Positions 1 through 35,152 of a DNA stretch of 35,746 nt are shown here, one piece after another. The notes beneath the pieces are model-generated. The model made no database searches. It worked only from the letters and a program-made list of their open reading frames with translations, and was not told the origin of the DNA. The stretch is from a virus (Duplodnaviria; Heunggongvirae; Uroviricota; Caudoviricetes). The stretch spans positions 1-35,746 of the IMG/VR virus record IMGVR_UViG_2563366879_000004, one strand, 5' to 3'. How positions within the stretch are numbered: the stretch's first letter is position 1; each line of letters opens with the position of its first letter. Made by a program: the position numbers and the translations under genes.

Positions 1-1362
1 ATGTTTAAACCGGAACTCCTTTCCCCGGCGGGAACGCTGAAAAATATGCGTTACGCTTTCGCTTATGGCGCAGATGCTGTTTATGCGGGCCAGCCGCGTT
101 ACTCCCTGCGTGTACGCAACAACGAATTCAACCACGAAAATCTTCAGCTCGGCATCAATGAAGCCCACGCGCTGGGGAAAAAGTTTTATGTCGTGGTCAA
201 CATTGCACCGCACAACGCCAAGCTGAAAACCTTTATCCGTGACCTGAAACCGGTGGTGGAAATGGGGCCGGATGCGCTGATTATGTCCGATCCAGGGCTG
301 ATTATGCTGGTGCGTGAGCACTTCCCGGAAATGCCAATCCACCTCTCGGTACAGGCTAACGCCGTAAACTGGGCGACGGTGAAATTCTGGCAGCAAATGG
401 GGCTGACCCGCGTGATCCTCTCTCGCGAACTGTCACTGGAAGAGATTGAAGAGATCCGCAATCAGGTGCCGGATATGGAGATCGAAATCTTCGTTCACGG
501 CGCGCTGTGCATGGCCTACTCCGGTCGCTGCCTGCTCTCTGGCTATATCAACAAGCGCGACCCGAACCAGGGTACCTGCACCAACGCCTGCCGCTGGGAG
601 TACAACGTCCAGGAAGGGAAAGAAGATGACGTCGGCAACATCGTACACAAGTACGAGCCGATTCCGGTGCAAAATGTTGAGCCGACGCTGGGTATCGGCG
701 CGCCAACCGACAAAGTGTTTATGATCGAAGAAGCCCAGCGTCCGGGCGAGTATATGACCGCGTTTGAAGATGAGCACGGCACTTACATCATGAACTCGAA
801 AGATCTGCGCGCCATCGCCCATGTTGAACGCCTGACCAAAATGGGCGTGCATTCGCTGAAAATCGAAGGCCGTACCAAATCTTTCTACTATTGCGCACGC
901 ACCGCGCAGGTTTACCGTAAAGCTATCGATGACGCCGCTGCGGGCAAACCGTTCGATACCAGCCTGCTGGAAACTCTGGAAGGTCTGGCGCATCGTGGCT
1001 ATACCGAAGGTTTCCTGCGTCGTCATACCCACGACGATTATCAGAACTACGAATACGGTTATTCGGTTTCTGACCGTCAGCAGTTTGTTGGTGAGTTTAC
1101 CGGTGAGCGCAAGGGGGAGCTCGCGGCGGTAGCGGTGAAAAATAAATTCTCCGTTGGCGACAGCCTTGAGCTGATGACGCCGCAAGGCAACATTAACTTT
1201 ACCCTTGAGCATATGGAAAACGCCAAAGGTGAAGCTATGCCGGTCGCACCAGGCGATGGTTATACTGTGTGGCTCCCGGTGCCGCAGGATCTTGAGCTAA
1301 ATTACGCGCTGCTGATGCGTAATTTCTCCGGGGAAACCACGCGTAACCCCCACGGTAAGTGA
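1..1362 (+). CDS. yegQ: Peptidase U32-family protein YegQ/TrhP (tRNA hydroxylation); host gene on the left flank
   Basis: 453-aa ORF from window base 1; translation recognised as E. coli YegQ (U32 peptidase family, Cys-rich CxxxC region); sits directly upstream of cyaR as in E. coli. Confidence 0.88.
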   Translation: MFKPELLSPAGTLKNMRYAFAYGADAVYAGQPRYSLRVRNNEFNHENLQLGINEAHALGKKFYVVVNIAPHNAKLKTFIRDLKPVVEMGPDALIMSDPGLIMLVREHFPEMPIHLSVQANAVNWATVKFWQQMGLTRVILSRELSLEEIEEIRNQVPDMEIEIFVHGALCMAYSGRCLLSGYINKRDPNQGTCTNACRWEYNVQEGKEDDVGNIVHKYEPIPVQNVEPTLGIGAPTDKVFMIEEAQRPGEYMTAFEDEHGTYIMNSKDLRAIAHVERLTKMGVHSLKIEGRTKSFYYCARTAQVYRKAIDDAAAGKPFDTSLLETLEGLAHRGYTEGFLRRHTHDDYQNYEYGYSVSDRQQFVGEFTGERKGELAAVAVKNKFSVGDSLELMTPQGNINFTLEHMENAKGEAMPVAPGDGYTVWLPVPQDLELNYALLMRNFSGETTRNPHGK

Positions 1363-8237: not shown

Positions 8238-8662
8238 CCGTTTAACTCCGTGGTTAATGGGTGCAACTATTTTCTGTTGGGCAGAGCATGAGACGCTATT
8301 TGACCTGGCTGGTCAGTGGATGAAACAACAGATAAAGAAAAGGCGGGCAATTCACCCGCCAGTCCTGATTTGTACTCACTCATTTTCCGACTGACAATTT
8401 ACTTAGCCCAAAAGCTTGTCGAATGTCTCAGGGCGTGAAGCGGACATTGCTAACAGCGTTTTATGTGAATTAACAGGGAGTAGGTCAACGTAGCGCTAGT
8501 GGCGTGTATTCTGGCTTAAAGTGTGGAGCAGTTGTCAGATTCAATGCTCATTGCAAAAAATTGTGTTCTAAAGAGGGCTGTTATATGTTATAGGTTGTTA
8601 AGCACCATCGGTGTAAAATACACTTAGAAGTGTCAAACAAGATCGTTCAAAAGGAAGACAAA

Positions 8663-8920
8663 ATGAATAACCAGCAGTTTAGGGATTTTTTGCGCAAAAA
8701 TGCACATATTGTGGATTCCAATTGGAATCCAACAGATGCACAGCTAGATGAAATCAGAGCAGCAATACAGAGAGAACTAGATCTAGGTAATAAGATAAAC
8801 TATAGCGGCCTTCAACATATCATTATTCGCATTACTGGCACTACTAGGGTAATGATATTTGATAGCGTTGATAATAGTGATTTAAACATGCTATTAGCTG
8901 CAGCAACAAAAAAGAGTTAA
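8663..8920 (+). CDS. Hypothetical 85-aa protein, first gene of the cargo module at the Z/fun position (ORF as supplied begins at 8630)
   Basis: ATG at 8663 preceded by AAGGA at 8651-8655; AT-rich; no recognised domain; opposite strand to flanking tail genes. Confidence 0.55.
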   Translation: MNNQQFRDFLRKNAHIVDSNWNPTDAQLDEIRAAIQRELDLGNKINYSGLQHIIIRITGTTRVMIFDSVDNSDLNMLLAAATKKS

Positions 8921-8923
8921 TAA

Positions 8924-9625
8924 ATGGATAATTTGGAAGAAAAGCTTTCTGCGAAGAAAGCTTTGTTTATTTCATCTGTAAGAAAATTTCTCTCGTCTAA
9001 AAACAGAGATAATTTCATAGATTGCATGATCAATGGTACCGCCTATTTCAATGAGGCAGAAAAAATGGTGGGTAATAGTAAGCTACAAGGTAAGCACAAC
9101 GATGGTTTATGGGTAACTGACTTAGCCGAGTCTTGTGAGGCAATACTTGAGTCTTATCTTCTGCATATTGAATTTATCAAGTCACACCATGAAGACATGA
9201 TGGGTGAAAGTTATAAGAAACCAAACCTGCATGCCCTTTCCAGTATGCAAAGAATGGTGAAGATGTATTGTCAGAAAGAATCATCCAGTCACCTGAGAGA
9301 AAGATTCTTAAAAGCTAACTTACCAACAAAGGGTTTTGACGTGGCTCACAGAGACGATATTGATACTGCAAATAAATATATAACATTAGGTATTGGGTCA
9401 GTATTAGTTATAATGTCATTTGCTTTTGCAATGTTCATGGATAATCCTTCGTATTTTAAAATCTTTATAATAAGATCAACTTTTGCTGTTGGCTGTGCAG
9501 CCTTGGCCTCATTTGTTCCTGGATGGATAAACGTTAACGTAAAAGGGTATGTAAAAGCAGGAGGAGCCATTGCCATTATTTTAATATTTTATTTCTTTAA
9601 CCCCCCTGCAATGCTGATTGGCTAA
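8924..9625 (+). CDS. Hypothetical 233-aa membrane protein (soluble N-terminal region of about 150 aa plus about three C-terminal transmembrane helices)
   Basis: ORF starts 4 nt after the upstream gene; C-terminal hydrophobic stretches (ITLGIGSVLVIMSFAFAMF, FAVGCAALASFVPGWI, GGAIAIILIFYFF); AT-rich. Confidence 0.6.
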   Translation: MDNLEEKLSAKKALFISSVRKFLSSKNRDNFIDCMINGTAYFNEAEKMVGNSKLQGKHNDGLWVTDLAESCEAILESYLLHIEFIKSHHEDMMGESYKKPNLHALSSMQRMVKMYCQKESSSHLRERFLKANLPTKGFDVAHRDDIDTANKYITLGIGSVLVIMSFAFAMFMDNPSYFKIFIIRSTFAVGCAALASFVPGWINVNVKGYVKAGGAIAIILIFYFFNPPAMLIG

Positions 9626-15158: not shown

Positions 15159-15914
15159 TTAGTTGTAACACTTCTCTATAATCTTCATACACTCCTCATG
15201 AGCTAAATCATGGCTGTCAAATTCTTTATTAAAAAAGAAGAAAAACGCCTTCTTAACCTGAGGCATTTCAATAAAAATAAATTCATCAACCTTATGAAAG
15301 AAATGAAAACTCTTGTTTGATGTTTCAAAAACCATCAAAGAATTATGTTTTTTATCCTTCCATTTCGACATCAGATTGCGTCGCGATTTTCTTATAATCC
15401 TGAAGACATCCTCCGGTGTCGTATCGACATTCCCCCAAAACATTGCAACCGGGAAGTTTGCAAGGAAAGGGATATAATCCCCCCCTTTATACCTGAGAAA
15501 GCGGGTCCGTAAATCCATTAATTGCAACTTAAAGCCCATGTATTGCAACCACCATATGATGCAATCATATTCATAATCTGTTAACTCATCGCCCCTCTTT
15601 TCCGTAAGAAATTTCTTCAGGTTATACTCAAACGCTCCCAGCAAATCAGAATTGCACACTCTGCATGCTGGTACAGTGGCTTTGATGTAATGAGTTGACT
15701 GATTATTCTTTTTATTAATTAAAAGTTTTTCAGCATTTGACTCAAAAGCCCACTGAGGAATAATGTGCTCACGAGTAATATCGCCAGAACTCCCGCATAA
15801 CACACATACATCAGCATTATGGTCAGCAATAATACAATCCATAACTTTCTTTTGAGAATGCTTTACTCTTTTTCTCAAAATGGAAAACTTTTTATCCACA
15901 AACACCCGTCTCAT
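15159..15914 (-). CDS. HNH-motif nuclease-domain protein (251 aa) at the orf30 variable position
   Basis: N-terminal CVLCG...REHIIP...N...CRVCN pattern (two CxxC pairs flanking an HNH-like core); ATGA overlap with the S stop; AT-rich relative to neighbours. Confidence 0.6.
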   Translation of the reverse strand: MRRVFVDKKFSILRKRVKHSQKKVMDCIIADHNADVCVLCGSSGDITREHIIPQWAFESNAEKLLINKKNNQSTHYIKATVPACRVCNSDLLGAFEYNLKKFLTEKRGDELTDYEYDCIIWWLQYMGFKLQLMDLRTRFLRYKGGDYIPFLANFPVAMFWGNVDTTPEDVFRIIRKSRRNLMSKWKDKKHNSLMVFETSNKSFHFFHKVDEFIFIEMPQVKKAFFFFFNKEFDSHDLAHEECMKIIEKCYN

Positions 15915-22117: not shown

Positions 22118-22290
22118 TGTCAGGAGTCCTGAATAGTGATTAGAGGAGTCACATGTCGGCATCAGTTTCCCGACGATGCGCATCCTCCGCCATCAGTCCC
22201 GGATGGCTTATCACTGACACAACAGCACCTTAGCGAATCGCAGGGCGCGACTCAGTAGCCTTGCCGTGTATTCATCACGGCGAGGTATTC
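22118..22290. promoter_or_regulatory. Divergent late-promoter region between O (minus) and P (plus); Ogr-dependent promoters expected
   Basis: Only intergenic space between divergently oriented late operons; individual -10/-35 or Ogr dyad elements could not be pinpointed by eye. Confidence 0.4.
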
Positions 22291-24063
22291 ATGACCATCA
22301 CCACAGACACCACTCTTTTACACGACCCGCGTCGTCAGGCGGCGCTGCTGTACTGGCAGGGGTTTTCCGTGCCGCAGATTGCCGCCATGTTGCAGATGAA
22401 ACGCCCGACGGTGCAGAGCTGGAAACAGCGCGACGGCTGGGACAGCGTTGCCCCCATCAGCCGTGTCGAAATGAGTCTGGAAGCGCGGCTGACCCAGCTC
22501 ATCATCAAACCGCAGAAAACCGGCGGTGACTTCAAGGAAATTGACCTGCTGGGACGCCAGATTGAACGACTGGCACGGGTCAACCGCTACAGCCAGACCG
22601 GCAACGAGGCAGACCTTAATCCGAACGTCGCTAACCGCAACAAAGGCGGGCGTCGCAAACCGAAAAAGAATTTTTTCAGTGACGAGGCCATCGAAAAGCT
22701 GGAGCAGATTTTCTTTGAGCAGTCTTTCGACTATCAGTTGCACTGGTATCGTGCCGGGCTTGAGCACCGCATCCGCGATATCCTGAAATCCCGCCAGATT
22801 GGCGCGACGTTTTATTTTTCCCGCGAGGCGCTGCTGCGCGCCCTGAAAACCGGCCATAACCAGATTTTTCTGTCGGCCAGTAAAACGCAGGCGTATGTGT
22901 TCCGTGAATACATCATCGCCTTTGCCCGGCTGGTTGACGTTGACCTGACCGGTGACCCGATTGTCCTGGGCAATAACGGCGCAAAACTGATTTTTCTCGG
23001 CACCAACTCCAACACCGCACAGAGCCATAACGGCGACCTGTACGTCGACGAGATTTTCTGGATCCCGAATTTTCAGGTACTGCGTAAGGTGGCATCTGGT
23101 ATGGCCTCACAGAGTCACCTGCGCTCGACCTATTTCTCCACCCCGTCCACGCTGGCGCACGACGCCTACCCGTTCTGGTCGGGTGAACTGTTTAACCGGG
23201 GACGCGCCAGCGCCGCCGAACGCGTGGAAATCGACGTCAGTCATAACGCCCTTGCCGGTGGGCTTCTCTGTGCGGACGGCCAGTGGCGACAGATTGTCAC
23301 CATTGAGGACGCCCTGAAAGGCGGCTGCACGCTGTTCGACATTGAGCAGCTCAAACGCGAAAACAGCGCCGACGATTTTAAAAACCTGTTCATGTGTGAA
23401 TTTGTTGACGACAAGGCATCGGTGTTCCCGTTCGAGGAGCTGCAACGCTGCATGGTCGACACGCTGGAAGAATGGGAAGACTATGCGCCGTTTGCCGCCA
23501 ATCCGTTCGGCTCCCGCCCGGTATGGATTGGTTACGACCCGTCACACCGTGGCGACAGCGCCGGATGCGTGGTACTGGCACCGCCGGTGGTGGCCGGTGG
23601 CAAATTCAGGATACTTGAGCGTCACCAGTGGAAAGGCATGGACTTTGCCACCCAGGCTGAATCCATCCGCAAACTCACCGAAAAATACAACGTCGAATAC
23701 ATCGGAATTGATGCCACCGGCCTCGGTGTCGGCGTGTTCCAGCTCGTGCGCTCGTTCTATCCCGCCGCGCGTGATATCCGCTACACGCCGGAAATGAAAA
23801 CCGCAATGGTGCTCAAGGCAAAAGACGTTATCCGCCGTGGCTGTCTGGAATACGACGTCAGCGCCACCGACATCACCAGCTCGTTTATGGCTATCCGCAA
23901 GACCATGACCAGCAGCGGACGCAGCGCCACGTATGAGGCCAGCCGCAGCGAGGAAGCCAGCCACGCCGACCTCGCCTGGGCGACCATGCACGCCCTGTTA
24001 AATGAGCCACTCACCGCCGGTATCAGCACCCCGCTGACATCCACCATTCTGGAGTTTTACTGA
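22291..24063 (+). CDS. P: Terminase large subunit (ATPase) gpP
   Basis: ATG at 22291 with GAGGT 5 nt upstream gives 590 aa (MTITTDTTLLHD...), P2 gpP length. Confidence 0.9.
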   Translation: MTITTDTTLLHDPRRQAALLYWQGFSVPQIAAMLQMKRPTVQSWKQRDGWDSVAPISRVEMSLEARLTQLIIKPQKTGGDFKEIDLLGRQIERLARVNRYSQTGNEADLNPNVANRNKGGRRKPKKNFFSDEAIEKLEQIFFEQSFDYQLHWYRAGLEHRIRDILKSRQIGATFYFSREALLRALKTGHNQIFLSASKTQAYVFREYIIAFARLVDVDLTGDPIVLGNNGAKLIFLGTNSNTAQSHNGDLYVDEIFWIPNFQVLRKVASGMASQSHLRSTYFSTPSTLAHDAYPFWSGELFNRGRASAAERVEIDVSHNALAGGLLCADGQWRQIVTIEDALKGGCTLFDIEQLKRENSADDFKNLFMCEFVDDKASVFPFEELQRCMVDTLEEWEDYAPFAANPFGSRPVWIGYDPSHRGDSAGCVVLAPPVVAGGKFRILERHQWKGMDFATQAESIRKLTEKYNVEYIGIDATGLGVGVFQLVRSFYPAARDIRYTPEMKTAMVLKAKDVIRRGCLEYDVSATDITSSFMAIRKTMTSSGRSATYEASRSEEASHADLAWATMHALLNEPLTAGISTPLTSTILEFY

Positions 24064-25097
24064 TGAGCAAGAAAAAAGGGAAAACACAGCAACCTGCGGC
24101 AAAAAAAATGACCGCCAGCGCCCCGAAAATGGAGGCATTCACCTTTGGTGAGCCAGTGCCGGTACTCGACCGCCGTGACATTCTGGATTACGTCGAATGC
24201 ATCAGTAACGGCAGATGGTATGAGCCACCGGTCAGCTTTACCGGTCTGGCAAAAAGCCTGCGTGCTGCCGTGCATCACAGCTCACCGATTTACGTCAAAC
24301 GTAATATTCTGGCTTCAACGTTTATCCCGCACCCGTGGCTTTCCCAGCAGGATTTCAGCCGCTTTGTGCTGGATTTTCTGGTGTTCGGTAATGCGTTTCT
24401 GGAAAAGCGTTACAGCCCCACCGGTAAGGTCATCAGACTGGAAACCTCACCGGCAAAATATACCCGCCGTGGCGTGGAGGAGGATGTTTACTGGTGGGTG
24501 CCGTCCTTCAACGAGCCGACAGCCTTCGCGCCCGGTTCCGTGTTTCACCTGCTGGAGCCCGATATTAATCAGGAGCTGTACGGCCTGCCGGAATATCTCA
24601 GCGCCCTTAACTCTGCCTGGCTGAATGAGTCGGCCACGCTGTTCCGCCGCAAGTATTACGAAAACGGCGCACATGCCGGATACATCATGTACGTTACCGA
24701 TGCCGTGCAGGATCGCAACGATATCGAAATGCTTCGCGAAAACATGGTTAAGTCGAAAGGCCGCAATAACTTTAAAAATCTGTTTCTCTATGCCCCGCAG
24801 GGGAAAGCCGACGGCATTAAAATTATCCCCCTCAGTGAAGTGGCAACGAAGGACGATTTTTTTAATATCAAAAAATCCAGCGCCGCTGACCTGCTGGACG
24901 CGCACCGCATCCCCTTTCAGTTGATGGGCGGCAAGCCGGAGAACGTCGGGTCGCTGGGTGATATTGAGAAAGTGGCAAAGGTCTTTGTCCGCAATGAGCT
25001 TATCCCGTTACAGGACAGGATTCGGGAAATAAACGGCTGGCTCGGTCAGGAGGTCATCCGCTTTAAAAACTACTCACTGGACACAGACAACGGCTGA
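24063..25097 (+). CDS. Q: Portal protein gpQ
   Basis: 344-aa ORF; TGATG overlap with the P stop; P2 gpQ length. Confidence 0.9.
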   Translation: MSKKKGKTQQPAAKKMTASAPKMEAFTFGEPVPVLDRRDILDYVECISNGRWYEPPVSFTGLAKSLRAAVHHSSPIYVKRNILASTFIPHPWLSQQDFSRFVLDFLVFGNAFLEKRYSPTGKVIRLETSPAKYTRRGVEEDVYWWVPSFNEPTAFAPGSVFHLLEPDINQELYGLPEYLSALNSAWLNESATLFRRKYYENGAHAGYIMYVTDAVQDRNDIEMLRENMVKSKGRNNFKNLFLYAPQGKADGIKIIPLSEVATKDDFFNIKKSSAADLLDAHRIPFQLMGGKPENVGSLGDIEKVAKVFVRNELIPLQDRIREINGWLGQEVIRFKNYSLDTDNG

Positions 25098-25102
25098 ACA
25101 TC

Positions 25103-25124
25103 GCCGCCTGCGGGCGGCTTTTTT
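25103..25124 (+). terminator. Rho-independent terminator after Q
   Basis: gccgcc-tgcg-ggcggc hairpin followed by tttttt, 6 nt after the Q stop. Confidence 0.7.
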
Positions 25125-25265
25125 ACAGCCCGTCATCACGCCCTCACACGCTCACCACCGCACAAAACAGCCCGCAGACACACCAACGCCCCGGCTAACA
25201 ATCTAAACGCCATCACGACGCGCTCAGACGCTGAAAAAATAAAATCAGCACCACCGCCAGCGCGC

Positions 25266-25284
25266 AGTGCTTTCCCCGCCTCGC
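25266..25284 (-). other. cos: cos cohesive-end site (19 nt, GGCGAGGCGGGGAAAGCAC on minus strand)
   Basis: Plus strand gtgctttccccgcctcgcc is the reverse complement of the recalled P2 19-nt cohesive end; located just beyond Q as in P2. Confidence 0.8.
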
Positions 25285-25434
25285 CCGCCCGCTTAATGGG
25301 GCGGTTTTGATGCAGTTGTATAACGACGCAGACTTCCTGACAGTTCTATCAACTCATAACAAAAAAAAGCATTACAGATGAATGCAAAATCATGCAACTA
25401 ATGATGGCGTACAGGCTAGGTGAGAAAATAAATG

Positions 25435-26235
25435 CTATTTCATCAGTCCTATAAAAGCTGCTGTCATGCTACCCAATGCACCAATAGCAGCAAATAACGT
25501 TGCCCAAAACATGCTTTTTTGGCTACGAATATTCTCATTATATCGTTGTTTTTCATTATTGAAGTGATTTAACGTATTAATTGCTTTTCCGGTGGGCTTA
25601 TAACCATCTCGAGTCTTTGAAATGTCCCCACTCTCTACAAGGGAATCCAGACATAAGCGAAGTTCTTTTATGAGTCGAGAATAATCATCATGGTAGATCC
25701 ATAAACGTCCTGCCACATCATTCATAATTAGAGTCTCACTGAATGGTTTTTCCCCTTGTTGCTCTCGATAAATTCTGACAATTGCAGCCAATACCGTCAT
25801 TACATCAGTTATCTCCTGCTTGCGTTGTCGATACAAATACTTCTCACGACTTAGCTTTTTATTTTGACGATCCGCTATTCTTCTAAATCTAAGTACATTA
25901 AAATAAGATAAATCATCCAATGAGTCAAACTTCAATTCATGCGCATGATAATAATAAATTCCAGAAAAGGAATTTGATGTAAGTCGTTCTGGTTTAAGAA
26001 TTGTATCAATATTGAAAGTTTTATTCTGATGATTCCACTTCTTAACCTTTATAATTCCGTTTGAATAACTATCAAAAAGATAGTCATTACCCTCGTCATC
26101 CTTAATGTAAACGGAATACATATCGTAATGAATGGCACTCTCATACATTAAACTAATTTTGCCATTTTCAGGGATCTTCTTTGACTCAAAAACTTTCAGA
26201 AACTTTACAACATCAACTTTATTTTTATGCCTCAT
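25435..26235 (-). CDS. Hypothetical 266-aa protein with a single C-terminal transmembrane anchor; candidate effector of the adjacent RT system
   Basis: AT-rich ORF 165 nt downstream of the RT gene on the same strand; C-terminus MFWATLFAAIGALGSMTAAFIGLMK is strongly hydrophobic; no recognised catalytic motif. Confidence 0.6.
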   Translation of the reverse strand: MRHKNKVDVVKFLKVFESKKIPENGKISLMYESAIHYDMYSVYIKDDEGNDYLFDSYSNGIIKVKKWNHQNKTFNIDTILKPERLTSNSFSGIYYYHAHELKFDSLDDLSYFNVLRFRRIADRQNKKLSREKYLYRQRKQEITDVMTVLAAIVRIYREQQGEKPFSETLIMNDVAGRLWIYHDDYSRLIKELRLCLDSLVESGDISKTRDGYKPTGKAINTLNHFNNEKQRYNENIRSQKSMFWATLFAAIGALGSMTAAFIGLMK

Positions 26236-26400
26236 ACATTCAGCCTTGACTGTAAACCACCATATTAAATGATTGCACTAACGACTCGTACTACTTATTG
26301 TTCAACCCAGTCAGAACTGAAAGCAAACTTTTGCACTAACTGGGTTTCCATCATAATATATCGATACTAATAAAATCCGATATTATTATATTTTAGTGTA

Positions 26401-27351
26401 TTAAACCGATGTATTTGCTTTCAACGTCAATACCTTCGATCTATAACGTTTTTCAATAACCCCCATTGAATATAAACGACCAAATAATTTCTTTGCTGTT
26501 CTTGTATCTTTAGCTTGTTCTACATCTTTTATTATTTTCCAAAGCTCTATTTCTCTAGCCATAAGATAATGCTGTTCGTTCCTAACCTTTAAGCTATCCC
26601 CAAATACTATCACTCCTGTCACTAGTTTAGGCTTATCCCCAGCATATAATTTCGTTTTAGTTGGATGCATAACGTGTCCATGCTTATTAATAATCTTACG
26701 AATCACGCTGCAAAACAATCGATTTACATTATCTCCAGAAAAAGTAAGATCATCGACATAAACTGTCATTTTCACACGAAACTTCTCACAAAGTTGATTC
26801 ATTTCATCAAACATTCTGGAATTTGCAAAATATGCTAATGGCATACTAATCCGACTACCCGTTGGCAATCGTTCATGACAGGTACATATATGAGATAAAA
26901 TATCAGCCACATCTGGCGACATTTTCATTATTGAGAAAAAGAAAGAAAATATCATTTCTCTTGTTGTTGACGGAAAAAAAGATCTAATATCTGTAGTCAT
27001 CAACTTCTGATGATTGAGATGTGCTTTAGCATTTGTTATGTTAGAGCAACTTTTTTTACCAGAGTGTAAATATTCGGGCATAGCTATACGCAATAATAGA
27101 CTCGCAATACGTGTATGCACTACATCTAATTTTTCTAAAGGCTTTTGTATTTTCCGTATTTTATTTTTTTTAGAAAGCTGTTCAAAAATAGAGTAATTAC
27201 CCTCATCCCTTTTCAAAACTGATAGGTCATTGATACTAACGCAGAGCAAGCTAGCCAACTTTTTTTTACTTTTAAGTTTATAAAGTGGCGAATCCGTAAT
27301 AGGATAAGATTTATTTTTAGTTGAAACCTTCAGCTTAATCCTTTTTTTCAT
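26401..27351 (-). CDS. Retron-type reverse transcriptase (316 aa)
   Basis: RT motifs in order: NAKAH (retron NAxxH), DIRSFFPS, LPTGSRISMPLAYF (LPxG...SxP), YVDD catalytic box (VYVDDLTFS), and KLVTGVIV (retron VTG motif); size typical of retron RTs; very AT-rich. Confidence 0.8.
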   Translation of the reverse strand: MKKRIKLKVSTKNKSYPITDSPLYKLKSKKKLASLLCVSINDLSVLKRDEGNYSIFEQLSKKNKIRKIQKPLEKLDVVHTRIASLLLRIAMPEYLHSGKKSCSNITNAKAHLNHQKLMTTDIRSFFPSTTREMIFSFFFSIMKMSPDVADILSHICTCHERLPTGSRISMPLAYFANSRMFDEMNQLCEKFRVKMTVYVDDLTFSGDNVNRLFCSVIRKIINKHGHVMHPTKTKLYAGDKPKLVTGVIVFGDSLKVRNEQHYLMAREIELWKIIKDVEQAKDTRTAKKLFGRLYSMGVIEKRYRSKVLTLKANTSV

Positions 27352-27637
27352 TTCTTTTACTTACCCACTCTAGTATATCCAGAACTTTCCCTGCCAGTTT
27401 TAAACGTAAACTTTTGGATAATCGTCCTTGTGTCCCTAATGATTCTGAAAAAAAGACCAAAGAGGATACTGGCATGTCGAAATGGGAAGCATAACGCTGC
27501 AAAATATCAATCGACGGCACCCATAGTCCGCTTTCAATCTCTACTATTCTGCTTTTTGGAATACCTAAAGATGATGATAAGTCAACTATTGATTCTTTAT
27601 GGTATTGCCTTATTAAACGAAGGGCTTTATGCAACAT
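27335..27637 (-). CDS. XRE-family helix-turn-helix protein (about 100 aa) overlapping the RT start
   Basis: HTH-like segment IVDLSSSLGIPKSRIVEIESG; preferred ATG at 27637 has GGAG 6 nt upstream (the supplied ORF starts at 27649); 3' end overlaps the RT start by 17 nt, suggesting translational coupling. Confidence 0.65.
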   Translation of the reverse strand: MLHKALRLIRQYHKESIVDLSSSLGIPKSRIVEIESGLWVPSIDILQRYASHFDMPVSSLVFFSESLGTQGRLSKSLRLKLAGKVLDILEWVSKRNEKKD

Positions 27638-27673
27638 AGGCAACTCCATCTTGTTGAAACTAGGGAGGACGCA

Positions 27674-27829
27674 TTACTCATCTCCCCCTTCAAAGAAGTC
27701 AACTGCGCGAGTGATCCAATAAAGTAGTCTAATAAGCCACTTAATTACACCCCAAGCGTTAGGAGTCTTCTTTTTCCGGTTTAACTTGTTTTGCGCCTGC
27801 TGTTCGTTGGTTACTTTATCATTTTTCAT
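27674..27829 (-). CDS. Possible 51-aa peptide with basic N-terminus and one hydrophobic helix (MKNDKV...WGVIKWLIRLLYWITRAV...)
   Basis: ATG at 27829 preceded by AAGGAG at 6-nt spacing; lies within the supplied 97-aa ORF 27674..27967; could instead be non-coding leader or ncRNA sequence. Confidence 0.35.
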   Translation of the reverse strand: MKNDKVTNEQQAQNKLNRKKKTPNAWGVIKWLIRLLYWITRAVDFFEGGDE

Positions 27830-28100
27830 GATCTGCTCCTTATGTCCACGGTGTGCAAACGATATGTCTGCTCCAGCACCATGGCTCGCCCTCATAAGGA
27901 TGAGATTGAACAGCACCAGCTCCCTGCTCCACGAACCCTTTGTCGCCCAAAGGGTTCGAATACCCATACGCTATGCCGCGTGAATCAGAGACTCCTGTCG
28001 CTGACAGAGGCGTTGCGCGGGGTAAATGTTAGAAAGCATTAGCTTTCCACGGGCAATAAATACCCAATTGATGGCGATTTATCTCACTAACTAACCAATG
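27830..28100 (-). ncRNA. Candidate structured leader or retron msr/msd-like ncRNA upstream of the RT operon (boundaries uncertain)
   Basis: Perfect 11-bp stem cgaaccctttg/caaagggttcg (27932-27958), 8-bp stem 28030-28049, imperfect stem 27992-28010, direct repeats of cgtgga; retron ncRNAs are normally encoded just upstream of the RT operon. The a1/a2 repeats could not be confirmed by eye. Confidence 0.3.
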
Positions 28101-28271
28101 ATTGAATCATACCAAGTAAACCGTTGTATTTGATCTCTCCTTATATAATTTTTTGTTATTAATAAATATAATTAAATAACAAAATGAAATAAAACTAATC
28201 TTCAACCGTCTCATCACAAGAAATATCAACAAATCAAGAATATCGTTTGATTATCTAGTCTTTCCAATTCA

Positions 28272-30566
28272 TTAAAATAAAAACAATGCTTCATCTTCAA
28301 TTCCCGGCCAAACATCAGCAACCGGATACGTGAATTTTTTCCCGTCATAATTTACAGTTGCTCCACGCGCCAGCGCCTCAAGTTCCCATCGCTGCGGCCT
28401 GATACCGTTCTGAGCAAGGTCAACGCGGATACGGGTAATTTGCATTCGTTCTGACCGGGTCAGTCTGGCCGATGGCGCTATTTCATGTGGTTTTAACGGT
28501 TTTCCGTTTCTTTGCTGGCGGTTTGGTCTTCTCAGTCCGTGTTTTAATGCCCCCCTGAGCGCCCTCACGACCTCCGGGTCACTCCATTCGATGACACCGT
28601 CATCAACCAGATTAAGCACTGCTGCGGCGTTCTCAGTAGGTGTGGGAGCCGGTAACGAAGTATCACCACCGGTGAGCTTTCCACAGTTATTGACAGGACT
28701 CCGAGGCGCGGCGATGCCGCTTTTTAAAGTCAAAGGCTCAACGACCGGAACTTTCGGAACAATGCGCCAGTCCGTCGTTCTGGTGATATGAATATGACGC
28801 GCGCCGAGATGCGGTGCGTAAATGCCGACCACTCTCTCGACCTCTTCCTCGTACTCGTTAACGTCATCCGACGGGCTACGGGCGACTCTGACAGTCTGAC
28901 AATCGCGCGGAACATTTGCCCCACCCTGCGCGCTGATATACAACGCAAAATCACCTCTGTCTGCGGCGGCGCGTGCAGCCTCGACGCGCTCGTCAAACTC
29001 ATCAGCAATGCTGACGCCGCGAGGCAATTTGCGTAGTTCACGGTAAGCCCCCATTGTCGGCAGACCAACCGTTTTAAATTGCGGAATGCGCCACGTTGAC
29101 GCCCATGCGGTAACAGCCGCAGCAGTATCTTTCAGCGGCCTGCCGGTATCGTTATCGAGCTGACCATCCAGTGCATAGCCATCGATGTTTTTTGAGATGT
29201 ATTTCGCGATATATCCCGCAGCACCGCCCCGGTTAAGGTGTTTTGCCTGAAAACGGTTTCGCGCGGCTCCTCTTTCGTCGCCATCCTCTTTGAGCGCATA
29301 GCGACGCATGATTTCGATAATCTGGTTACGCTGGCGTGGATTACAAAAAAGCATCATATGCCAGTGCGGCGTTCCGTCGTGGTGTGGCTCGACGACACGC
29401 AAACCGTAGACCTGTAAATCATTATCCTTGAATGCCGTGCGCATCAGGCTCCAGATGCGGCAGAGATAACGCTGCGCATCCTTTGGATTAAATGCCTCAT
29501 CGTTCCAGCCGTGATTAAGCTGAACGGTTTTACTTTCGCCTTTTCTGACCTGACGAGTCGGGTGATACTTTGACGGCGCGGTCAGCGTGATAAACATCCC
29601 CACATCACCCTCTGCGGCGGCGTAACGCTCAATACCGGCAATGGTGTTCATCAGCTCCATCCGGCGAATTTCAGGATTAGAAATACTGCCCATCACCTTA
29701 CTGATAAGGTCGATGCGCTCGCCGGTTTCCCTGTTTTCAAGGTCACACGATTTAAGAAATTCCAGATTTGCCTGGCGGCGCGCACGCACATCACGAATGG
29801 CGTGTTTACTGGCATAAGGAGAACGGTCTTTATTGACCTCCCCGACAGCTATCAGTAACGCTTCATGCCAGCGCATACGCTGGCCTTTAAGCTGATGAGT
29901 CCACCACTCATCGTTAAACAGACGGGCAATGGCAGAATATGCCTGCCTCGTGGTTATCTGTCCTTTACGGTATTTTTTCCAGTAGAGCGGGGAAATATTG
30001 AAAGCACGTGCAGCGCCAGCAACATGACCATACAGGTGAGCCTGCGCCTCATCCGTAAACAGTGATTCTTTTTCGCCATGCGCATCCACCCAGGCATCGC
30101 TGAGTTCCTCATACATCATGAAAAGCTGCGATGAGATACGGGCAGCAAACTTTTTCAGCTCCTTGTCATTCATTCCAGGCAGGCGCGCATAGTGGTCACG
30201 CTCTGCCAGAAACAGCAACGACGCGTCGGTGTTCATTTCATTGCGCTGATTAACGCGCTCAATGCGCGGCCATAAACGACGCTGAAAAGTGGATGTGAGG
30301 AAATAAAACCCGTGCAACGGGCTTTTATTGCGCCGGATGTAGTCATAGCGTGAAGTAAACAGCGAGCGCAAAAAGTAAGGCAGGCGGTTAATCGTGGATA
30401 AAACACCTTGCACCTGACGCATCTCGTCACGTGTAAGGGGTCTTTCGCGCCCGACAGCCTCGCGTGGCGCATTCCATGCATAAGCACCGGTAAACGCCTT
30501 ACCGGTGCCTGCGGCAAACGCAGACGGAGGTACGCAGGTGTATTGCTCCTGGAAAGAATGACTCAT
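28272..30566 (-). CDS. A: Replication initiation protein gpA (rolling-circle nickase)
   Basis: 764-aa ORF (recalled P2 gpA about 761 aa); N-terminal region resembles the recalled gpA sequence; position between orf83-side genes and the cos-proximal hotspot. Confidence 0.88.
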   Translation of the reverse strand: MSHSFQEQYTCVPPSAFAAGTGKAFTGAYAWNAPREAVGRERPLTRDEMRQVQGVLSTINRLPYFLRSLFTSRYDYIRRNKSPLHGFYFLTSTFQRRLWPRIERVNQRNEMNTDASLLFLAERDHYARLPGMNDKELKKFAARISSQLFMMYEELSDAWVDAHGEKESLFTDEAQAHLYGHVAGAARAFNISPLYWKKYRKGQITTRQAYSAIARLFNDEWWTHQLKGQRMRWHEALLIAVGEVNKDRSPYASKHAIRDVRARRQANLEFLKSCDLENRETGERIDLISKVMGSISNPEIRRMELMNTIAGIERYAAAEGDVGMFITLTAPSKYHPTRQVRKGESKTVQLNHGWNDEAFNPKDAQRYLCRIWSLMRTAFKDNDLQVYGLRVVEPHHDGTPHWHMMLFCNPRQRNQIIEIMRRYALKEDGDERGAARNRFQAKHLNRGGAAGYIAKYISKNIDGYALDGQLDNDTGRPLKDTAAAVTAWASTWRIPQFKTVGLPTMGAYRELRKLPRGVSIADEFDERVEAARAAADRGDFALYISAQGGANVPRDCQTVRVARSPSDDVNEYEEEVERVVGIYAPHLGARHIHITRTTDWRIVPKVPVVEPLTLKSGIAAPRSPVNNCGKLTGGDTSLPAPTPTENAAAVLNLVDDGVIEWSDPEVVRALRGALKHGLRRPNRQQRNGKPLKPHEIAPSARLTRSERMQITRIRVDLAQNGIRPQRWELEALARGATVNYDGKKFTYPVADVWPGIEDEALFLF

Positions 30567-31570
30567 TCACATACACCGGCATAGACACTACTGCAAACGG
30601 CTTTATCATTCGCCGAAGCCAGTAAATCAAACTGAGTACCCCCACGCGTTGTCATTGTCCAGTCATGGTAGGTTTCTATTCCGTATGCCTCGACTGTTAC
30701 AATCTCAATACGACGTTCTGCGCGTAACGGATCATGTGTGGATGGGAAAAAAGTGGAATTTCCCCGACGGGAGCACGACGCAACCAGTCGTTCCCATTCA
30801 GCAACCCGCTTTATTTCCTCCGGCCACCGGCGAAAAATTTCTGCCAGTTCAGATTTACGGACATGAATACATGGCATACAACCAACACGGCCACACCCCT
30901 GCTGATATAACGGATTTGGCTTAATGTCATGTCTTCTGGCTATTGCAAATACATCTTCATGCTTCCAGTGCAAAATCGGGCGATATACATGCAATCCGGG
31001 GGTGTTGTCTGCATCCTCTTCCCAGACAGGTAAAGCTGCGCGTGATGGCGATTCCTGAGCACGCACTCCCTGCCAGCTAATCACTTCCTCAAATTCATTG
31101 AGTAAAGGCAGGATTACCTGAGAACGCACGGGTTCATGTTTCAGTTCAAATGTGCAAAATCTGGCTTTGGTTGATGGGAAACGCCCCTTCCACAGACACA
31201 AATCAAGAAACGGGATACCCGTTGGTTTGAGAATTTCCAGCGCACAACTGATGCGCTGGTGCGCTTCTTCTTCCGACATTCCACAATCGTTAACCAACAA
31301 ATCAGGCCATTTGGTCTGGATAAACTTGCGCTTTGATTCAATCCGGCAGGAAAAATCAGCCCTGACCCTTTGAATTGGGCCAAGCCGTTTTTCCAGATAA
31401 TCCAGATATTTCATTGTCTGTGGATGTTCATGTCCCGTATCAGCAAAAACCGGCAATATGGGTACATTTTCTTCAATAGCGACAAGCCACTGAGCAAGGC
31501 TGTCCTTTCCACCTGAAACAAAAATAACATTGATGGTATTTTCAGTATGGCAACGAGCATCAGTAATCAT
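30563..31570 (-). CDS. PAPS-reductase-family PP-loop protein (335 aa), accessory gene between orf83 and A
   Basis: N-terminal SGGKDS PP-loop motif; C-terminal cysteine cluster CGRVGCMPC; ATGA-type overlaps with both neighbours; absent from the recalled P2 map. Confidence 0.65.
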   Translation of the reverse strand: MITDARCHTENTINVIFVSGGKDSLAQWLVAIEENVPILPVFADTGHEHPQTMKYLDYLEKRLGPIQRVRADFSCRIESKRKFIQTKWPDLLVNDCGMSEEEAHQRISCALEILKPTGIPFLDLCLWKGRFPSTKARFCTFELKHEPVRSQVILPLLNEFEEVISWQGVRAQESPSRAALPVWEEDADNTPGLHVYRPILHWKHEDVFAIARRHDIKPNPLYQQGCGRVGCMPCIHVRKSELAEIFRRWPEEIKRVAEWERLVASCSRRGNSTFFPSTHDPLRAERRIEIVTVEAYGIETYHDWTMTTRGGTQFDLLASANDKAVCSSVYAGVCE

Positions 31571-34138: not shown

Positions 34139-35152
34139 ATGGCAATCAAAAAACTCGATGATGGTCGATATGAAGTGGACATCCGCCCTACTGGACGTAA
34201 TGGAAAACGCATCCGTAGGAAGTTTGATAAGAAAAGCGAAGCTGTCGCTTTCGAGAAATACACGTTGTACAACCACCACAATAAAGAATGGCTATCAAAA
34301 CCAACAGACAAGCGACGTCTGTCGGAGCTGACACAGATCTGGTGGGATTTAAAGGGTAAACACGAAGAGCATGGGAAATCTAATCTTGGAAAAATTGAAA
34401 TCTTCACAAAAATAACGAATGACCCATGCGCATTTCAAATTACGAAATCGCTTATCAGCCAGTACTGCGCCACCCGAAGAAGTCAGGGTATTAAACCTTC
34501 GAGTATCAATCGTGATTTAACATGTATTAGCGGCATGTTTACAGCCCTGATTGAAGCGGAGTTATTCTTTGGTGAGCACCCTATCAGAGGGACAAAAAGG
34601 CTTAAGGAGGAAAAACCAGACACAGGCTATCTCACGCAGGAAGAAATTGCCTTACTGCTTGCTGCTCTTGACGGCGACAACAAAAAGATTGCGATTCTTT
34701 GCCTGAGCACTGGAGCACGTTGGGGAGAAGCAGCTCGTTTGAAAGCAGAAAATATCATCCATAACCGCGTCACGTTTGTTAAAACGAAAACAAACAAACC
34801 ACGCACCGTCCCGATCTCAGAGGCTGTTGCCAAAATGATCGCGGATAACAAACGAGGTTTTTTATTCCCTGATGCTGATTACCCTCGCTTCAGACGAACA
34901 ATGAAAGCAATAAAACCGGATTTGCCAATGGGGCAAGCCACACATGCACTAAGGCACAGCTTTGCCACTCATTTCATGATTAATGGAGGAAGTATTATCA
35001 CGCTACAACGGATACTAGGTCACACGCGGATTGAGCAAACTATGGTTTACGCTCATTTTGCGCCAGAGTACCTTCAGGACGCCATTTCTCTTAATCCGCT
35101 AAGAGGTGGTACTGAGGCCGAGAGTGTCCACACAGTGTCCACAGTAGAGTAA
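34139..35152 (+). CDS. int: Tyrosine integrase
   Basis: 337-aa ORF with C-terminal catalytic signature (HALRHSFATH... and Y in MVYAHFAPEY); ends 80 nt from the attR core. Confidence 0.9.
   Translation: MAIKKLDDGRYEVDIRPTGRNGKRIRRKFDKKSEAVAFEKYTLYNHHNKEWLSKPTDKRRLSELTQIWWDLKGKHEEHGKSNLGKIEIFTKITNDPCAFQITKSLISQYCATRRSQGIKPSSINRDLTCISGMFTALIEAELFFGEHPIRGTKRLKEEKPDTGYLTQEEIALLLAALDGDNKKIAILCLSTGARWGEAARLKAENIIHNRVTFVKTKTNKPRTVPISEAVAKMIADNKRGFLFPDADYPRFRRTMKAIKPDLPMGQATHALRHSFATHFMINGGSIITLQRILGHTRIEQTMVYAHFAPEYLQDAISLNPLRGGTEAESVHTVSTVE

Follow-up and report, generated by a model that had tools for sequence, protein, structure and literature searches.

Type VI retrons were defined as a class by Mestre et al. 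in 2020 (PMC7736814) and are covered by dedicated PADLOC models. Relatives studied experimentally include Retron-Vpa2 and Retron-Eco12 (bioRxiv 10.1101/2025.10.22.683967) and Retron-Sen3 (bioRxiv 10.64898/2026.04.27.721009). In Vpa2, the hybrid RNA (hyRNA) is ~470 nt long, and the HTH protein restrains reverse transcription and binds both the reverse transcriptase (RT) and the hyRNA (bioRxiv 10.1101/2025.10.22.683967). Retron-Eco12 defends against lambda-vir from its native promoter (bioRxiv 10.1101/2025.10.22.683967). Sen3 produces ssDNA and the small toxin SP constitutively, is controlled post-translationally, and requires Gam/RecBCD inhibition (bioRxiv 10.64898/2026.04.27.721009). SP is the demonstrated toxin in both Vpa2 (bioRxiv 10.1101/2025.10.22.683967) and Sen3 (bioRxiv 10.64898/2026.04.27.721009). 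In P2-like phages, the gpA-gpQ hotspot is known to house ~169 systems, retrons among them (Rousset et al. 2022, PMC9122126).

The DNA analyzed here (the window) is a stretch of 35,746 nt from a tailed-phage genome. We consider it probable, at roughly 85%, that its minus strand from 26401 to ~28114 holds an entire Type VI retron, which belongs to the Vpa2/Eco12-like lineage, uses a Vpa2-type mechanism, and is cargo of a P2-like prophage at the gpA-gpQ hotspot. All four components—hyRNA, SP, HTH, and RT—were identified and are intact, and the RNA architecture is conserved and covarying. The protein-coding features are as follows.

27674..27829, minus strand: SP, 51 aa, predicted toxin (MKNDKVTNEQQAQNKLNRKKKTPNAWGVIKWLIRLLYWITRAVDFFEGGDE); from phrog_15287, BLASTP to the Vpa2-like SP, and position
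27335..27637, minus strand: HTH protein, 100 aa, Cro/C1 or XRE type, predicted repressor/antitoxin; from PADLOC HTH_VI and the HTH of the Vpa2-like locus
26401..27351, minus strand: retron RT, 316 aa, intact YVDD; from PADLOC RT_VI, Pfam RVT_1, and PDB sequence matches
25435-26235, minus strand: 266-aa protein with a C-terminal hydrophobic helix, cargo; starts 165 nt past the RT stop

The block is flanked by replication gene A (28272-30566) on one side and by the portal gene (24063-25097) on the other, and the P2 cos 19-mer is at 25267-25285. GC content is 0.31 to 0.36 over 25500-27500, compared with 0.50 to 0.60 in the flanking phage genes. An earlier note on this DNA had proposed an AT-rich, retron-type RT operon between cos and gene A, in the old/tin (gpA-gpQ) hotspot of a P2-like prophage, and the flanking genes, the cos site, the base composition, and the retron RT matches all bear this out. 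The same note held that the composition could not be assigned to a characterized retron and might be an undescribed variant; that view is superseded by full-length matches to PADLOC RT_VI and HTH_VI, which assign the locus to Type VI. The locus has the RT group, the RT motifs, an HTH gene upstream of and overlapping the RT gene, and an SP gene upstream of the HTH gene by which Type VI membership is recognized.

The RT matched PADLOC RT_VI over profile positions 1-278 of 279 (E 1.8e-105, 350 bits), followed by RT_III-A (150 bits), with RT_V at 74 bits; placement in Type VI is by these profile scores, not by a tree. The score against Pfam RVT_1 exceeded the cutoff, 10 of 10 PDB sequence matches were retron RTs, and strong NCBIfam matches were to retrons only. 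A search of Rfam gave no match. Five motifs are present in order—NAKAH (107-111), DIRSFFPS (121-128), LPTGSRISMP (162-171), YVDD (198-201), and VTG (244-246)—and the key motif positions were invariant in 13 relatives. Close relatives include Vibrio RTs at 52 to 61% identity.

The HTH protein matched PADLOC HTH_VI over positions 1-91 of 92 (E 2.5e-31) and Pfam HTH_3 weakly. The ATG at 27637 (100 aa) is a more probable start than 27649, since it has a GGAG 6 nt upstream, is used by RefSeq PGAP, and places a conserved Arg at position 7. At 100 to 104 aa, the protein falls within the 91 to 110 aa expected of a Type VI HTH encoded directly upstream of or overlapping the RT. The ORF ends at 27335 and the RT starts at 27351, so the two overlap by 17 nt. 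The SP ORF, annotated in RefSeq as WP_016233353.1, is preceded by AAGGAG, is separated from the downstream HTH start by 36 nt, and matched phrog_15287 over its full length (E 1.1e-34). A similar small ORF lies 16 to 79 nt upstream of the HTH gene in 64 of 65 related loci examined. A longer, 97-aa reading of the SP frame was rejected, as it is not conserved in relatives.

These results uphold what the earlier note had read from the ORFs: a 316-aa RT at 26401-27351 with the ordered retron motifs, all five of which were located; an XRE-type HTH gene overlapping it by 17 nt; and a possible 51-aa peptide with a strong AAGGAG site, now recognizable as the SP of Type VI retrons. The profile-HMM search that it had suggested returned PADLOC RT_VI as the best match with Pfam RVT_1 above cutoff, and the RT went with retron RTs rather than with those of group II introns, DGRs, Abi, or DRT systems. 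The effector had been left unproven, with the 51-aa peptide listed as merely possible; the peptide stands, and SP is now most likely the retron effector, judging from its counterparts in Vpa2 and Sen3.

A Vibrio parahaemolyticus locus (L012) provides the link to an experimentally dissected system. The residues mutated in Retron-Vpa2 are K15, I39, F43, and F45 of SP and R7 of the HTH, and L012, whose SP is 55 aa long, has every one of them. On these residue identities, rather than via accession WP_069548583.1, L012 would be Vpa2; the Vpa2 preprint writes YADD where L012 reads YVDD. Identity of the proteins here to those of L012 was 52% for the RT (E 1e-122), 47% for the HTH (E 4e-34, with Arg7 conserved), and 27% for SP (BLASTP E 5e-7). 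We infer placement with Vpa2 in the 'Large' lineage.

The RNA features, all on the minus strand, are as follows.

28106..28114, minus strand: putative extended -10 promoter of the retron operon (TGGTATGAT), read from the sequence
27650..28100, minus strand: hyRNA, ~450 nt, template plus SP coding sequence, ends approximate; from fold z-score and consensus structure
28031..28066, minus strand: two small conserved 5' hairpins (28066-28050 and 28048-28031; helices 2 and 3), msr-like part of the first arm
27963..28022, minus strand: long stem with a variable, indel-rich tip (helices 4-6), candidate msd core (ssDNA template)
27932..27958, minus strand: hairpin with GGGCGA in its loop (27943-27948), predicted template 3' end, equivalent to the msDNA 5' stem-loop; from covariation, role by analogy to Vpa2
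27920..27931, minus strand: helix 8 strand, 12 pairs, 99.1% paired; from conservation
27886..27900, minus strand: anti-RBS strand (27900-27893, TCCTTATG), then a second GGGCGA (27891-27886) in the adjoining loop; from covariation
27837..27844, minus strand: SP ribosome-binding site (CATAAGGA), masked through pairing with the anti-RBS strand; from inverted repeat, consensus structure, and covariation
27798..27816, minus strand: SP codons 5-11, also RNA pairing strands; from covariation
27655..27667, minus strand: IR2 (CTCCCTAGTTTCA), directly after the SP stop codon, pairs with IR1 and encloses the SP gene; from consensus structure

A TGnTATGAT-like motif occupies the promoter position in five of the seven rows of alignment A2; in L013 and L014, which diverge most, it is weaker. 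Similarity to Klebsiella prophage retrons begins at ~28116, about at the putative promoter, and the operon transcript may start at ~28100. A promoter consensus scan did not list the -10 site at 28106..28114, because its -35 is poor.

The leader folded at -163.7 kcal/mol compared with -136.3 ± 6.0 for shuffled sequences (z = -4.6), and 0 of 100 shuffles were as stable. In a 120-pair consensus across 18 distinct relatives, 97.5% of cells were paired and 26 pairs showed compensatory change, compared with 15.5 ± 2.1 in shuffles (0 of 500) and 4 to 10 when partners were slid. A covariance model of the hairpin-riboregulator segment gave full-length matches in 28 loci, of which 9 were not used in building it; in the resulting alignment 42 of 45 pairs were compensatory (24.4 ± 2.3 when shuffled, 17 to 25 when slid). 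The highly structured leader described in the earlier note is thus confirmed, and the hyRNA, at ~27650..28100, lies within the stretch (27650-28270, minus) for which that note had proposed a covariance-model search and folding.

Individual elements differ in how they are supported. The two 5' hairpins were 99 to 100% paired, with compensatory change in 4 of 13 pairs. The basal helices of the long stem are conserved and covarying, and its tip varies in sequence and length among relatives; Vpa2 msDNA maps to the long stem-loop in the corresponding arm (bioRxiv 10.1101/2025.10.22.683967). All 10 pairs of the hairpin at 27932..27958 showed compensatory change across the 28 loci. Helix 8 is a matter of conservation, not covariation, since nine of its pairs are invariant and the other three have changes in just one partner. 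The helix between the anti-RBS strand and the SP ribosome-binding site was 94.1% paired, with compensatory change in 8 of 8 pairs across the 28 loci, although the covariation of this helix and of IR1:IR2 comes solely from distant loci aligned by the structure-fitted model, because both are invariant among close relatives. Pairing of 27805-27798 with 27915-27908 covaried in 8 of 8 pairs and was 99.6% paired. The two loop motifs vary together among loci (GGGCGA twice here, GGACGAA twice in the Vpa2-like locus, and TGGCGAC twice or AGCGAAG twice elsewhere), matching the "7-nt direct repeats" of the Vpa2 preprint (bioRxiv 10.1101/2025.10.22.683967). The predicted RNA thus has the elements of a Vpa2-type hyRNA: an msr-msd-like arm joined to the SP coding sequence, stem-loops that hold the ribosome-binding site and start codon, inverted repeats at the ends, and a pair of loops carrying direct repeats.

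From homology, we suggest how ssDNA, triggers, toxicity, and defense may be connected in this retron, with steps taken from the Vpa2 experiments (bioRxiv 10.1101/2025.10.22.683967). A single promoter would drive the ~450-nt hyRNA and, after it, the HTH and RT genes. Within the hyRNA would be the msr-msd-like arm, a riboregulator locking the start codon and ribosome-binding site of SP, and the SP coding sequence, which long-range inverted repeats enclose. At rest, the RNA fold and the HTH protein would either keep SP from being made or neutralize it. A phage expressing recombination or RecBCD-inhibiting functions (of the lambda Red Beta/Exo/Gam type) would cause RT-copied ssDNA from the long stem (~28022-27932) to accumulate. 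The msDNA 5' stem-loop would carry the complement of the GGGCGA loop motif and could release the ribosome-binding site by hybridizing to the second GGGCGA, next to the anti-RBS strand. Translation of SP would then stop growth of the infected cell (abortive infection).

Because Type VI is mechanistically split, with Sen3 under constitutive, post-translational control, the Vpa2-type switch may not apply here. It is possible, though unlikely, that the locus instead works like Sen3 (Type VI, cl2075, Salmonella; Garcia-Rodriguez et al., bioRxiv 10.64898/2026.04.27.721009), with ssDNA and SP made constitutively, the HTH protein neutralizing SP directly as in a toxin-antitoxin pair, and loss of RecBCD activity upon infection, rather than a rise in ssDNA, freeing the toxin. 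The two loci share the SP-HTH-RT order, an SP embedded in a long-range-paired RNA scaffold, and an enterobacterial host, and the strong conservation of the HTH and its overlap with the RT gene would suit such a role. However, the 51-aa SP resembles that of Vpa2 (55 aa), not the 79-aa SP of Sen3, and leaves no room for the ~25-residue N-terminal extension and long, amphipathic C-terminal helix of the latter. Compared by length with the cl2075 SPs generally (~75 to 79 aa with both of these elements), the SP here did not fit. Further arguing against a Sen3-like mode, the riboregulator, the sequestered ribosome-binding site, and the paired loop repeats on which the proposed ssDNA switch depends are common to the Vpa2-like locus, and Retron-Eco12, an E. 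coli relative of Vpa2, has no detectable msDNA at rest (bioRxiv 10.1101/2025.10.22.683967).

A second long-range pairing joins SP codons to the 5' end of the RNA. Positions 27816-27804 pair with 28101-28089 (84% paired in 16 relatives, compared with 13 to 48% when slid; three covarying positions), and this pairing crosses that of 27805-27798, implying a pseudoknot or two alternative folds. A speculative and rather improbable extension is that the 5' pairing, which crosses two supported helices, is an alternative conformer or pseudoknot toggled by ssDNA, a new layer of Type VI riboregulation, and jointly that the 266-aa protein (phrog_7611) is a phage-exclusion factor of the P2 hotspot that acts from a single gene, is not yet described, and perhaps works together with the retron in this lineage.

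It is very unlikely that the 266-aa protein is the effector of a classical tripartite retron, with RT, ncRNA, and a membrane-anchored effector, and the 51-aa ORF incidental. The protein has a C-terminal membrane helix, its gene lies on the same strand 165 nt downstream in equally AT-rich DNA, and 10 of 10 E. coli genomes with the exact retron allele also carry it. However, of 100 E. coli genomes with a match to the block, 90 did not cover it in full; in those of them that were listed, the match spans only 26411-28170, the retron minus the 266-aa gene. Downstream neighbors vary among relatives: Serratia has none, Yersinia has an unrelated 246-aa protein, and the O157-type and P2_2H1 prophages have other genes. 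The gene was absent from Klebsiella, Serratia, Yersinia, Dickeya, and Vibrio retron loci and is thus not co-inherited with the retron across them, while phrog_7611 homologues occupy the same hotspot in Enterobacter and Cronobacter prophages without any RT. The protein had no PADLOC match, its model (a beta domain plus a winged helix) shows no known toxin fold, and the toxin of both Vpa2 and Sen3 is SP. The spacing and C-terminal membrane anchor given in the earlier note were correct, but its inclusion of the protein in the retron block was not, as most relatives with the retron lack the gene, and it turns up elsewhere where there is no retron. Judging from this distribution, the 266-aa protein is separate cargo, neither a retron component nor its effector. 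In a Serratia prophage, SP-HTH-RT is all that separates gpA from the portal gene, and in Dickeya it lies outside any phage, indicating a self-sufficient module.

There is likewise very little probability that the locus is a decayed or silent remnant hitchhiking in the prophage. The long stem, at 60 nt, is shorter than in several relatives, yet all three ORFs are intact, the catalytic YVDD and HTH Arg7 are retained, 126 contigs carry the identical RT sequence and 424 the identical SP, and RNA pairs are maintained through compensatory change. A defense RT of another kind (Abi or DRT/UG) or a group II intron or DGR RT has a negligible chance of being correct, since the weak NCBIfam Drt3a match (21.9 bits) falls far short of the 200-bit cutoff, all strong matches were retron RTs, and the vicinity contained neither an intron RNA or maturase domain nor a DGR template/variable repeat.

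The Type VI reading thus adds little new biology: the class has been known since 2020, retrons were already reported from the P2 hotspot, and relatives were dissected in two 2025-2026 preprints. The locus is an intact, ordinary example of a known anti-phage system. It does carry a warning for annotation, in that the predicted toxin is a 51-aa ORF within an RNA and the big adjacent gene is not the effector. It also provides base-level coordinates for this lineage—template, riboregulator, co-varying loop repeats, and the crossing long-range pairing—with which the proposed switch from ssDNA to translation can be tested directly in E. coli using native parts.

Among described systems, Retron-Vpa2 (Zhang et al., bioRxiv 10.1101/2025.10.22.683967) has the same order of hyRNA, SP, HTH, and RT. 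The RNA of the Vpa2-like locus is homologous, with the loop-repeat hairpin, IR1/IR2 (IR2 being the counterpart of the a1/a2-like inverted repeats of the Vpa2 hyRNA), the helix into SP codons 9-11, the sequestered ribosome-binding site, and the second loop repeat. In comparison with Vpa2, the retron here occupies an E. coli P2-like prophage hotspot, has an SP of 51 rather than 55 aa, a repeat of GGGCGA rather than GGACGAA, and a long stem of ~60 nt, and is read from sequence. Retron-Eco12, also of Type VI and a relative of Vpa2, comes from E. coli (bioRxiv 10.1101/2025.10.22.683967), and either the locus here or the commoner E. coli allele (RT 81% identical, ~82% at the DNA level) could be Eco12 or only a relative of it. 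Type IV (Retron-Eco6) and Type V (Retron-Sen1) are sister groups in RT clade 3 with related RTs, but they make abundant msDNA that acts as an antitoxin, use separate 2TM or cold-shock/ART effectors, and have no SP in the ncRNA; the best PADLOC score of either for the RT here was 74 bits (RT_V), compared with 350 bits for RT_VI.

P2 old/tin occupies the same slot next to cos as the retron here, and the two are related neither in sequence nor in mechanism: Old is an ATPase-Toprim nuclease and Tin targets the T-even ssDNA-binding protein. Old excludes wild-type lambda and spares red gam (Spi-) mutants, and the same phage functions trigger Type VI retrons. A Vpa2/Eco12-type Type VI retron seen in a natural carrier, a P2-like prophage, exactly at the old/tin position suggests that this slot is repeatedly filled by systems sensing lambda-type recombination or RecBCD-inhibiting functions.

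The window carries a Type VI retron whose four components are intact. This class pairs a clade-3 reverse transcriptase (RT) with a small Cro/C1-type helix-turn-helix (HTH) protein and often includes a small helical accessory protein (Mestre et al. 2020, PMC7736814). The genes of the block and its flanks are as follows.

28272-30566: P2-type replication gene A, one flank of the block
27674-27829, minus strand: 51-aa reading frame of the small protein (SP), a predicted toxin, preceded by AAGGAG
End at 27335, minus strand: HTH ORF, overlapping the RT start by 17 nt
26401-27351, minus strand: RT ORF, 316 aa
25435-26235, minus strand: 266-aa ORF, starting 165 nt past the RT stop
24063-25097: portal gene, other flank of the block
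22261-24063: terminase gene, same flank

The PADLOC model RT_VI matched the RT over its full length (E = 1.8e-105; 350 bits, against 150 bits for the runner-up model), and HTH_VI matched the HTH protein, also at full length (E = 2.5e-31). The earlier note had held the composition of the module to be unassignable, a view that these full-length Type VI matches overturn, while its description of the ORFs, their overlap and spacing, and the AAGGAG site was accurate, as was its reading of the RT as retron-type. All 10 PDB sequence matches of the RT are retron RTs, and NCBIfam returned only retron families below threshold and a negligible Drt3a match; since the strong matches are all to retrons, a nonretron RT was rejected. 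The RT carries NAKAH, DIRSFFPS, LPTGSRISMP, YVDD, and VTG, in line with the motif set of that note, and the key motif residues are invariant across 13 relatives; a decayed remnant was likewise rejected as an explanation. The 470 relatives of the RT at E ≤ 1e-20 extend from E. coli (81% identity) through Serratia, Yersinia, and Dickeya to Vibrio (52 to 61%), and the identical RT sequence occurs on 126 public contigs under generic annotation.

RefSeq annotation of a 99.7% identical E. coli locus gives the same flanking genes (gene A, portal, and terminase). GC content is 0.31 to 0.36 over 25500-27500, versus 0.50 to 0.60 in the phage genes on either side, which bears out the AT-rich block seen earlier by eye. 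A 19-mer that we take to be the P2 cos sequence has a single exact match, at 25267-25285. The flanking genes and the cos 19-mer together identify the block as the gpA-gpQ hotspot of P2-like phages, in agreement with the proposed old/tin position. P2 itself has old and tin here, and retrons are among the known cargo of the hotspot (PMC9122126).

At its left edge the window includes a host gene for a peptidase U32 (1-1362, plus strand), and close to its right edge a 337-aa ORF (34139-35152) stands where P2 has its integrase, so the window probably spans the entire integrated prophage. Elsewhere in the prophage, a 335-aa protein (30563-31570, minus strand) carries a PAPS-reductase domain (E = 5e-35), with weaker matches of the SspD/DndC/BrxP-like kind, and the end of its ORF shares 4 nt with the start of gene A. 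An AT-rich pair of ORFs (96 and 233 aa; GC about 0.35) between tail genes (8630-9625, plus strand) had no Pfam or PADLOC match; it occupies what we take to be the Z/fun place on the P2 map and may be a second cargo locus. An AT-rich 251-aa ORF (15159-15914, minus strand; GC 0.37 to 0.41) amid tail and lysis genes, presumably at the orf30 place, had no significant family match.

The 266-aa gene was considered as the retron effector and rejected, as most retron-bearing relatives lack it and homologues of it occur where no RT match was found. Among 5,426 complete E. coli genomes searched with the 3-kb block, the whole block was present at ≥98% identity in 10, and 90 others matched part of it at 60 to 90% identity. 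Among the matches listed, the partial match corresponds to the retron module (window 26411-28170; about 82% identity), situated in the same hotspot with different neighbors. A Serratia prophage has nothing but the SP-HTH-RT module between gpA and the portal gene; in Dickeya, the module adjoins Qat genes and lies outside any phage. The 29 homologues of the 266-aa protein found (phrog_7611) are from Enterobacteriaceae; in Enterobacter and Cronobacter prophages they occupy the same hotspot, beside DinI and a 243-aa protein whose N terminus has a hydrophobic segment, and no RT or HTH match was found beside them there. The 266-aa gene is thus not part of the retron but independent hotspot cargo. 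Its product had no match above threshold in Pfam, NCBIfam, or PADLOC; its structural model combines a winged helix with a beta domain at the N terminus and a membrane helix at the C terminus, and the gene may be an undescribed exclusion gene. The 165-nt spacer between RT and this gene had no similarity to relatives, indicating a lineage-specific junction. Other genes next to related retrons include one for a 454-aa protein in Peduovirus P2_2H1 (locus L104, 320-1684), one for an unrelated 246-aa protein that has a membrane helix at its C terminus, after the module in Yersinia (locus L125, 4364-5104), and three small ORFs in E. coli (locus L002, 3936-4866). Such varied neighbors would be expected if cargo modules shuffle independently within the hotspot.

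Of the 65 related loci examined, all but one have an SP-like ORF of 32 to 77 aa, with its own Shine-Dalgarno sequence and a stop 16 to 79 nt upstream of the HTH gene. The design of this ORF combines a polar N terminus, a lysine-rich stretch, and a Trp-containing hydrophobic helix, with a FEGGDE tail in the lineage of the window. The window SP (RefSeq WP_016233353.1) is matched at full length by phrog_15287 (E = 1.1e-34). A 97-aa extended reading of the frame was ruled out because its upstream part shifts frame or is missing in relatives and because it overlaps conserved RNA helices; the 97-aa ORF had no match above threshold in Pfam, NCBIfam, or PADLOC.

The sequence ahead of the HTH gene encodes a conserved RNA whose ribosome-binding site is locked and whose loop repeats come as a pair. 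Its fold (-163.7 kcal/mol, versus -136.3 ± 6.0 for shuffles; z = -4.6) upholds the highly structured leader claimed in the earlier note. Alignment of 18 distinct close relatives (RT 63 to 100% identical) over window 27635-28107 (minus strand) gave an RNAalifold consensus of 120 pairs with 97.5% of cells paired. Compensatory pairs numbered 26, versus 15.5 ± 2.1 in shuffled alignments (0 of 500 reached 26) and 4 to 10 with slid partners. The elements, all on the minus strand, are as follows.

28114-28106: putative promoter, a TGnTATGAT-like extended -10 kept in closer relatives
28066-28050 and 28048-28031: two small hairpins
28022-27963: long stem, its tip variable and rich in indels
27958-27932: hairpin with a GGGCGA loop
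27931-27920 with 27667-27655: inverted repeats IR1 and IR2, the latter just beyond the SP stop codon
27915-27908 with 27805-27798: helix with SP codons 9-11
27900-27893 with 27844-27837: anti-RBS strand with the SP ribosome-binding site
27891-27886: second GGGCGA copy, in a loop adjoining the anti-RBS helix
Over the SP start codon: small stem-loop

Since several helices are invariant among close relatives, a covariance model was built of the 170-nt hairpin-riboregulator segment. It matched at full length, and where expected, in 28 loci, 9 of which were absent from model building. In the resulting alignment, which favors the structure as it was fitted to the model, 94.6% of cells are paired and 42 of 45 pairs are compensatory, versus 24.4 ± 2.3 in shuffled and 17 to 25 in slid controls, a large margin; all eight pairs of the anti-RBS helix and all eight of the SP-codon helix are compensatory. 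An Rfam scan of 24000-30000 (E up to 5) returned only chance-level matches and no retron msr family; Rfam evidently lacks the Type VI hybrid RNA (hyRNA).

The two loop motifs change in step across loci: GGGCGA twice in the window, GGACGAA twice in a Vibrio parahaemolyticus locus resembling Retron-Vpa2, and TGGCGAC, AGCGAAG, or TGGTGAC twice in others. The hexamer itself is not rare in the window (21 sites versus 20.6 expected), and its weight comes from being invariant, loop-placed, and present in two covarying copies. The loop motifs correspond to the conserved direct repeats of Vpa2, which its authors proposed let msDNA hybridize to the riboregulator; they described msDNA of 63 nt (truncated) and 86 nt (full length) and an essential 5′ stem-loop (bioRxiv 10.1101/2025.10.22.683967). 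By analogy, the template is predicted at about 28022-27932. The transcript would start near 28100; the promoter call relies on the conserved extended -10, since a scan for consensus promoters and terminators gave counts around chance level and yielded no useful candidate ahead of the hyRNA.

The hyRNA 5′ end (28101-28089) is complementary to SP codons 5-9 (27816-27804; both minus strand). Over 16 relatives, 84% of this pairing is retained, versus 13 to 48% when slid, and it has three covarying positions in close relatives. Many distant loci show analogous 5′ complementarity at the same distance; tested against shuffles locus by locus, contiguous complementarity is mostly not significant alone, and support comes from the positional consistency and the three covarying columns. 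Because the pairing crosses both the 27915-27908:27805-27798 helix and IR1:IR2, it implies a pseudoknot or an alternative fold. The first SP codons (27798-27829, minus strand) are under the double constraint of pairing and coding; the peptide motif varies by lineage (NEQQAQ, RDQQVN, or FWQAL) and the base pairs are kept (SP alignment A7).

Retron-Vpa2 and Retron-Eco12 have the operon order ncRNA, SP, HTH, and RT (bioRxiv 10.1101/2025.10.22.683967). The V. parahaemolyticus locus (L012), also among the 28 covariance-model loci, encodes a 55-aa SP with K15, I39, F43, and F45 and an HTH protein with R7, the residues mutated in Retron-Vpa2 in the same preprint. The window proteins match those of L012 at 52% identity for RT (E = 1e-122), 47% for HTH (E = 4e-34), and 27% for SP (E = 5e-7), and R7 is present in the window HTH too, given the PGAP start at 27637. 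The L012 RT (L012 3001-3960) reads YVDD and the preprint writes YADD; either YADD is a generic motif name there, or L012 is a close relative of Vpa2 and not Vpa2 itself. The link of L012 to Vpa2 is by residue identities; the Vpa2 accession was absent from the cluster members listed.

By analogy with Retron-Vpa2, the HTH protein and the RNA fold would silence SP and hold reverse transcription at a low level. With phage SSAP/exonuclease and RecBCD-inhibiting functions at work, ssDNA would build up and open the riboregulator, after which SP would arrest the cell. A different arrangement is known from Retron-Sen3, in which ssDNA and SP are constitutive, the HTH protein is the antitoxin, and the trigger is RecBCD inhibition (bioRxiv 10.64898/2026.04.27.721009). 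That the window retron works in this way is less likely, given the length of its SP and the RNA features common to the window and the Vpa2-like locus. P2 Old excludes wild-type lambda and not red gam (Spi-) mutants, and if that holds, the retron would be expected to give a similar phenotype from the same slot.

Earlier publications already cover the Type VI class, its occurrence in P2 hotspots, and the mechanism in relatives. The additions made here are small, namely, the pairing of the 5′ end with SP codons 5-9 and the neighboring uncharacterized membrane protein with its predicted winged helix. The window locus is a further member of the class or possibly Retron-Eco12 itself, already cloned, and its hyRNA agrees, element by element, with the published description of the Retron-Vpa2 hyRNA.
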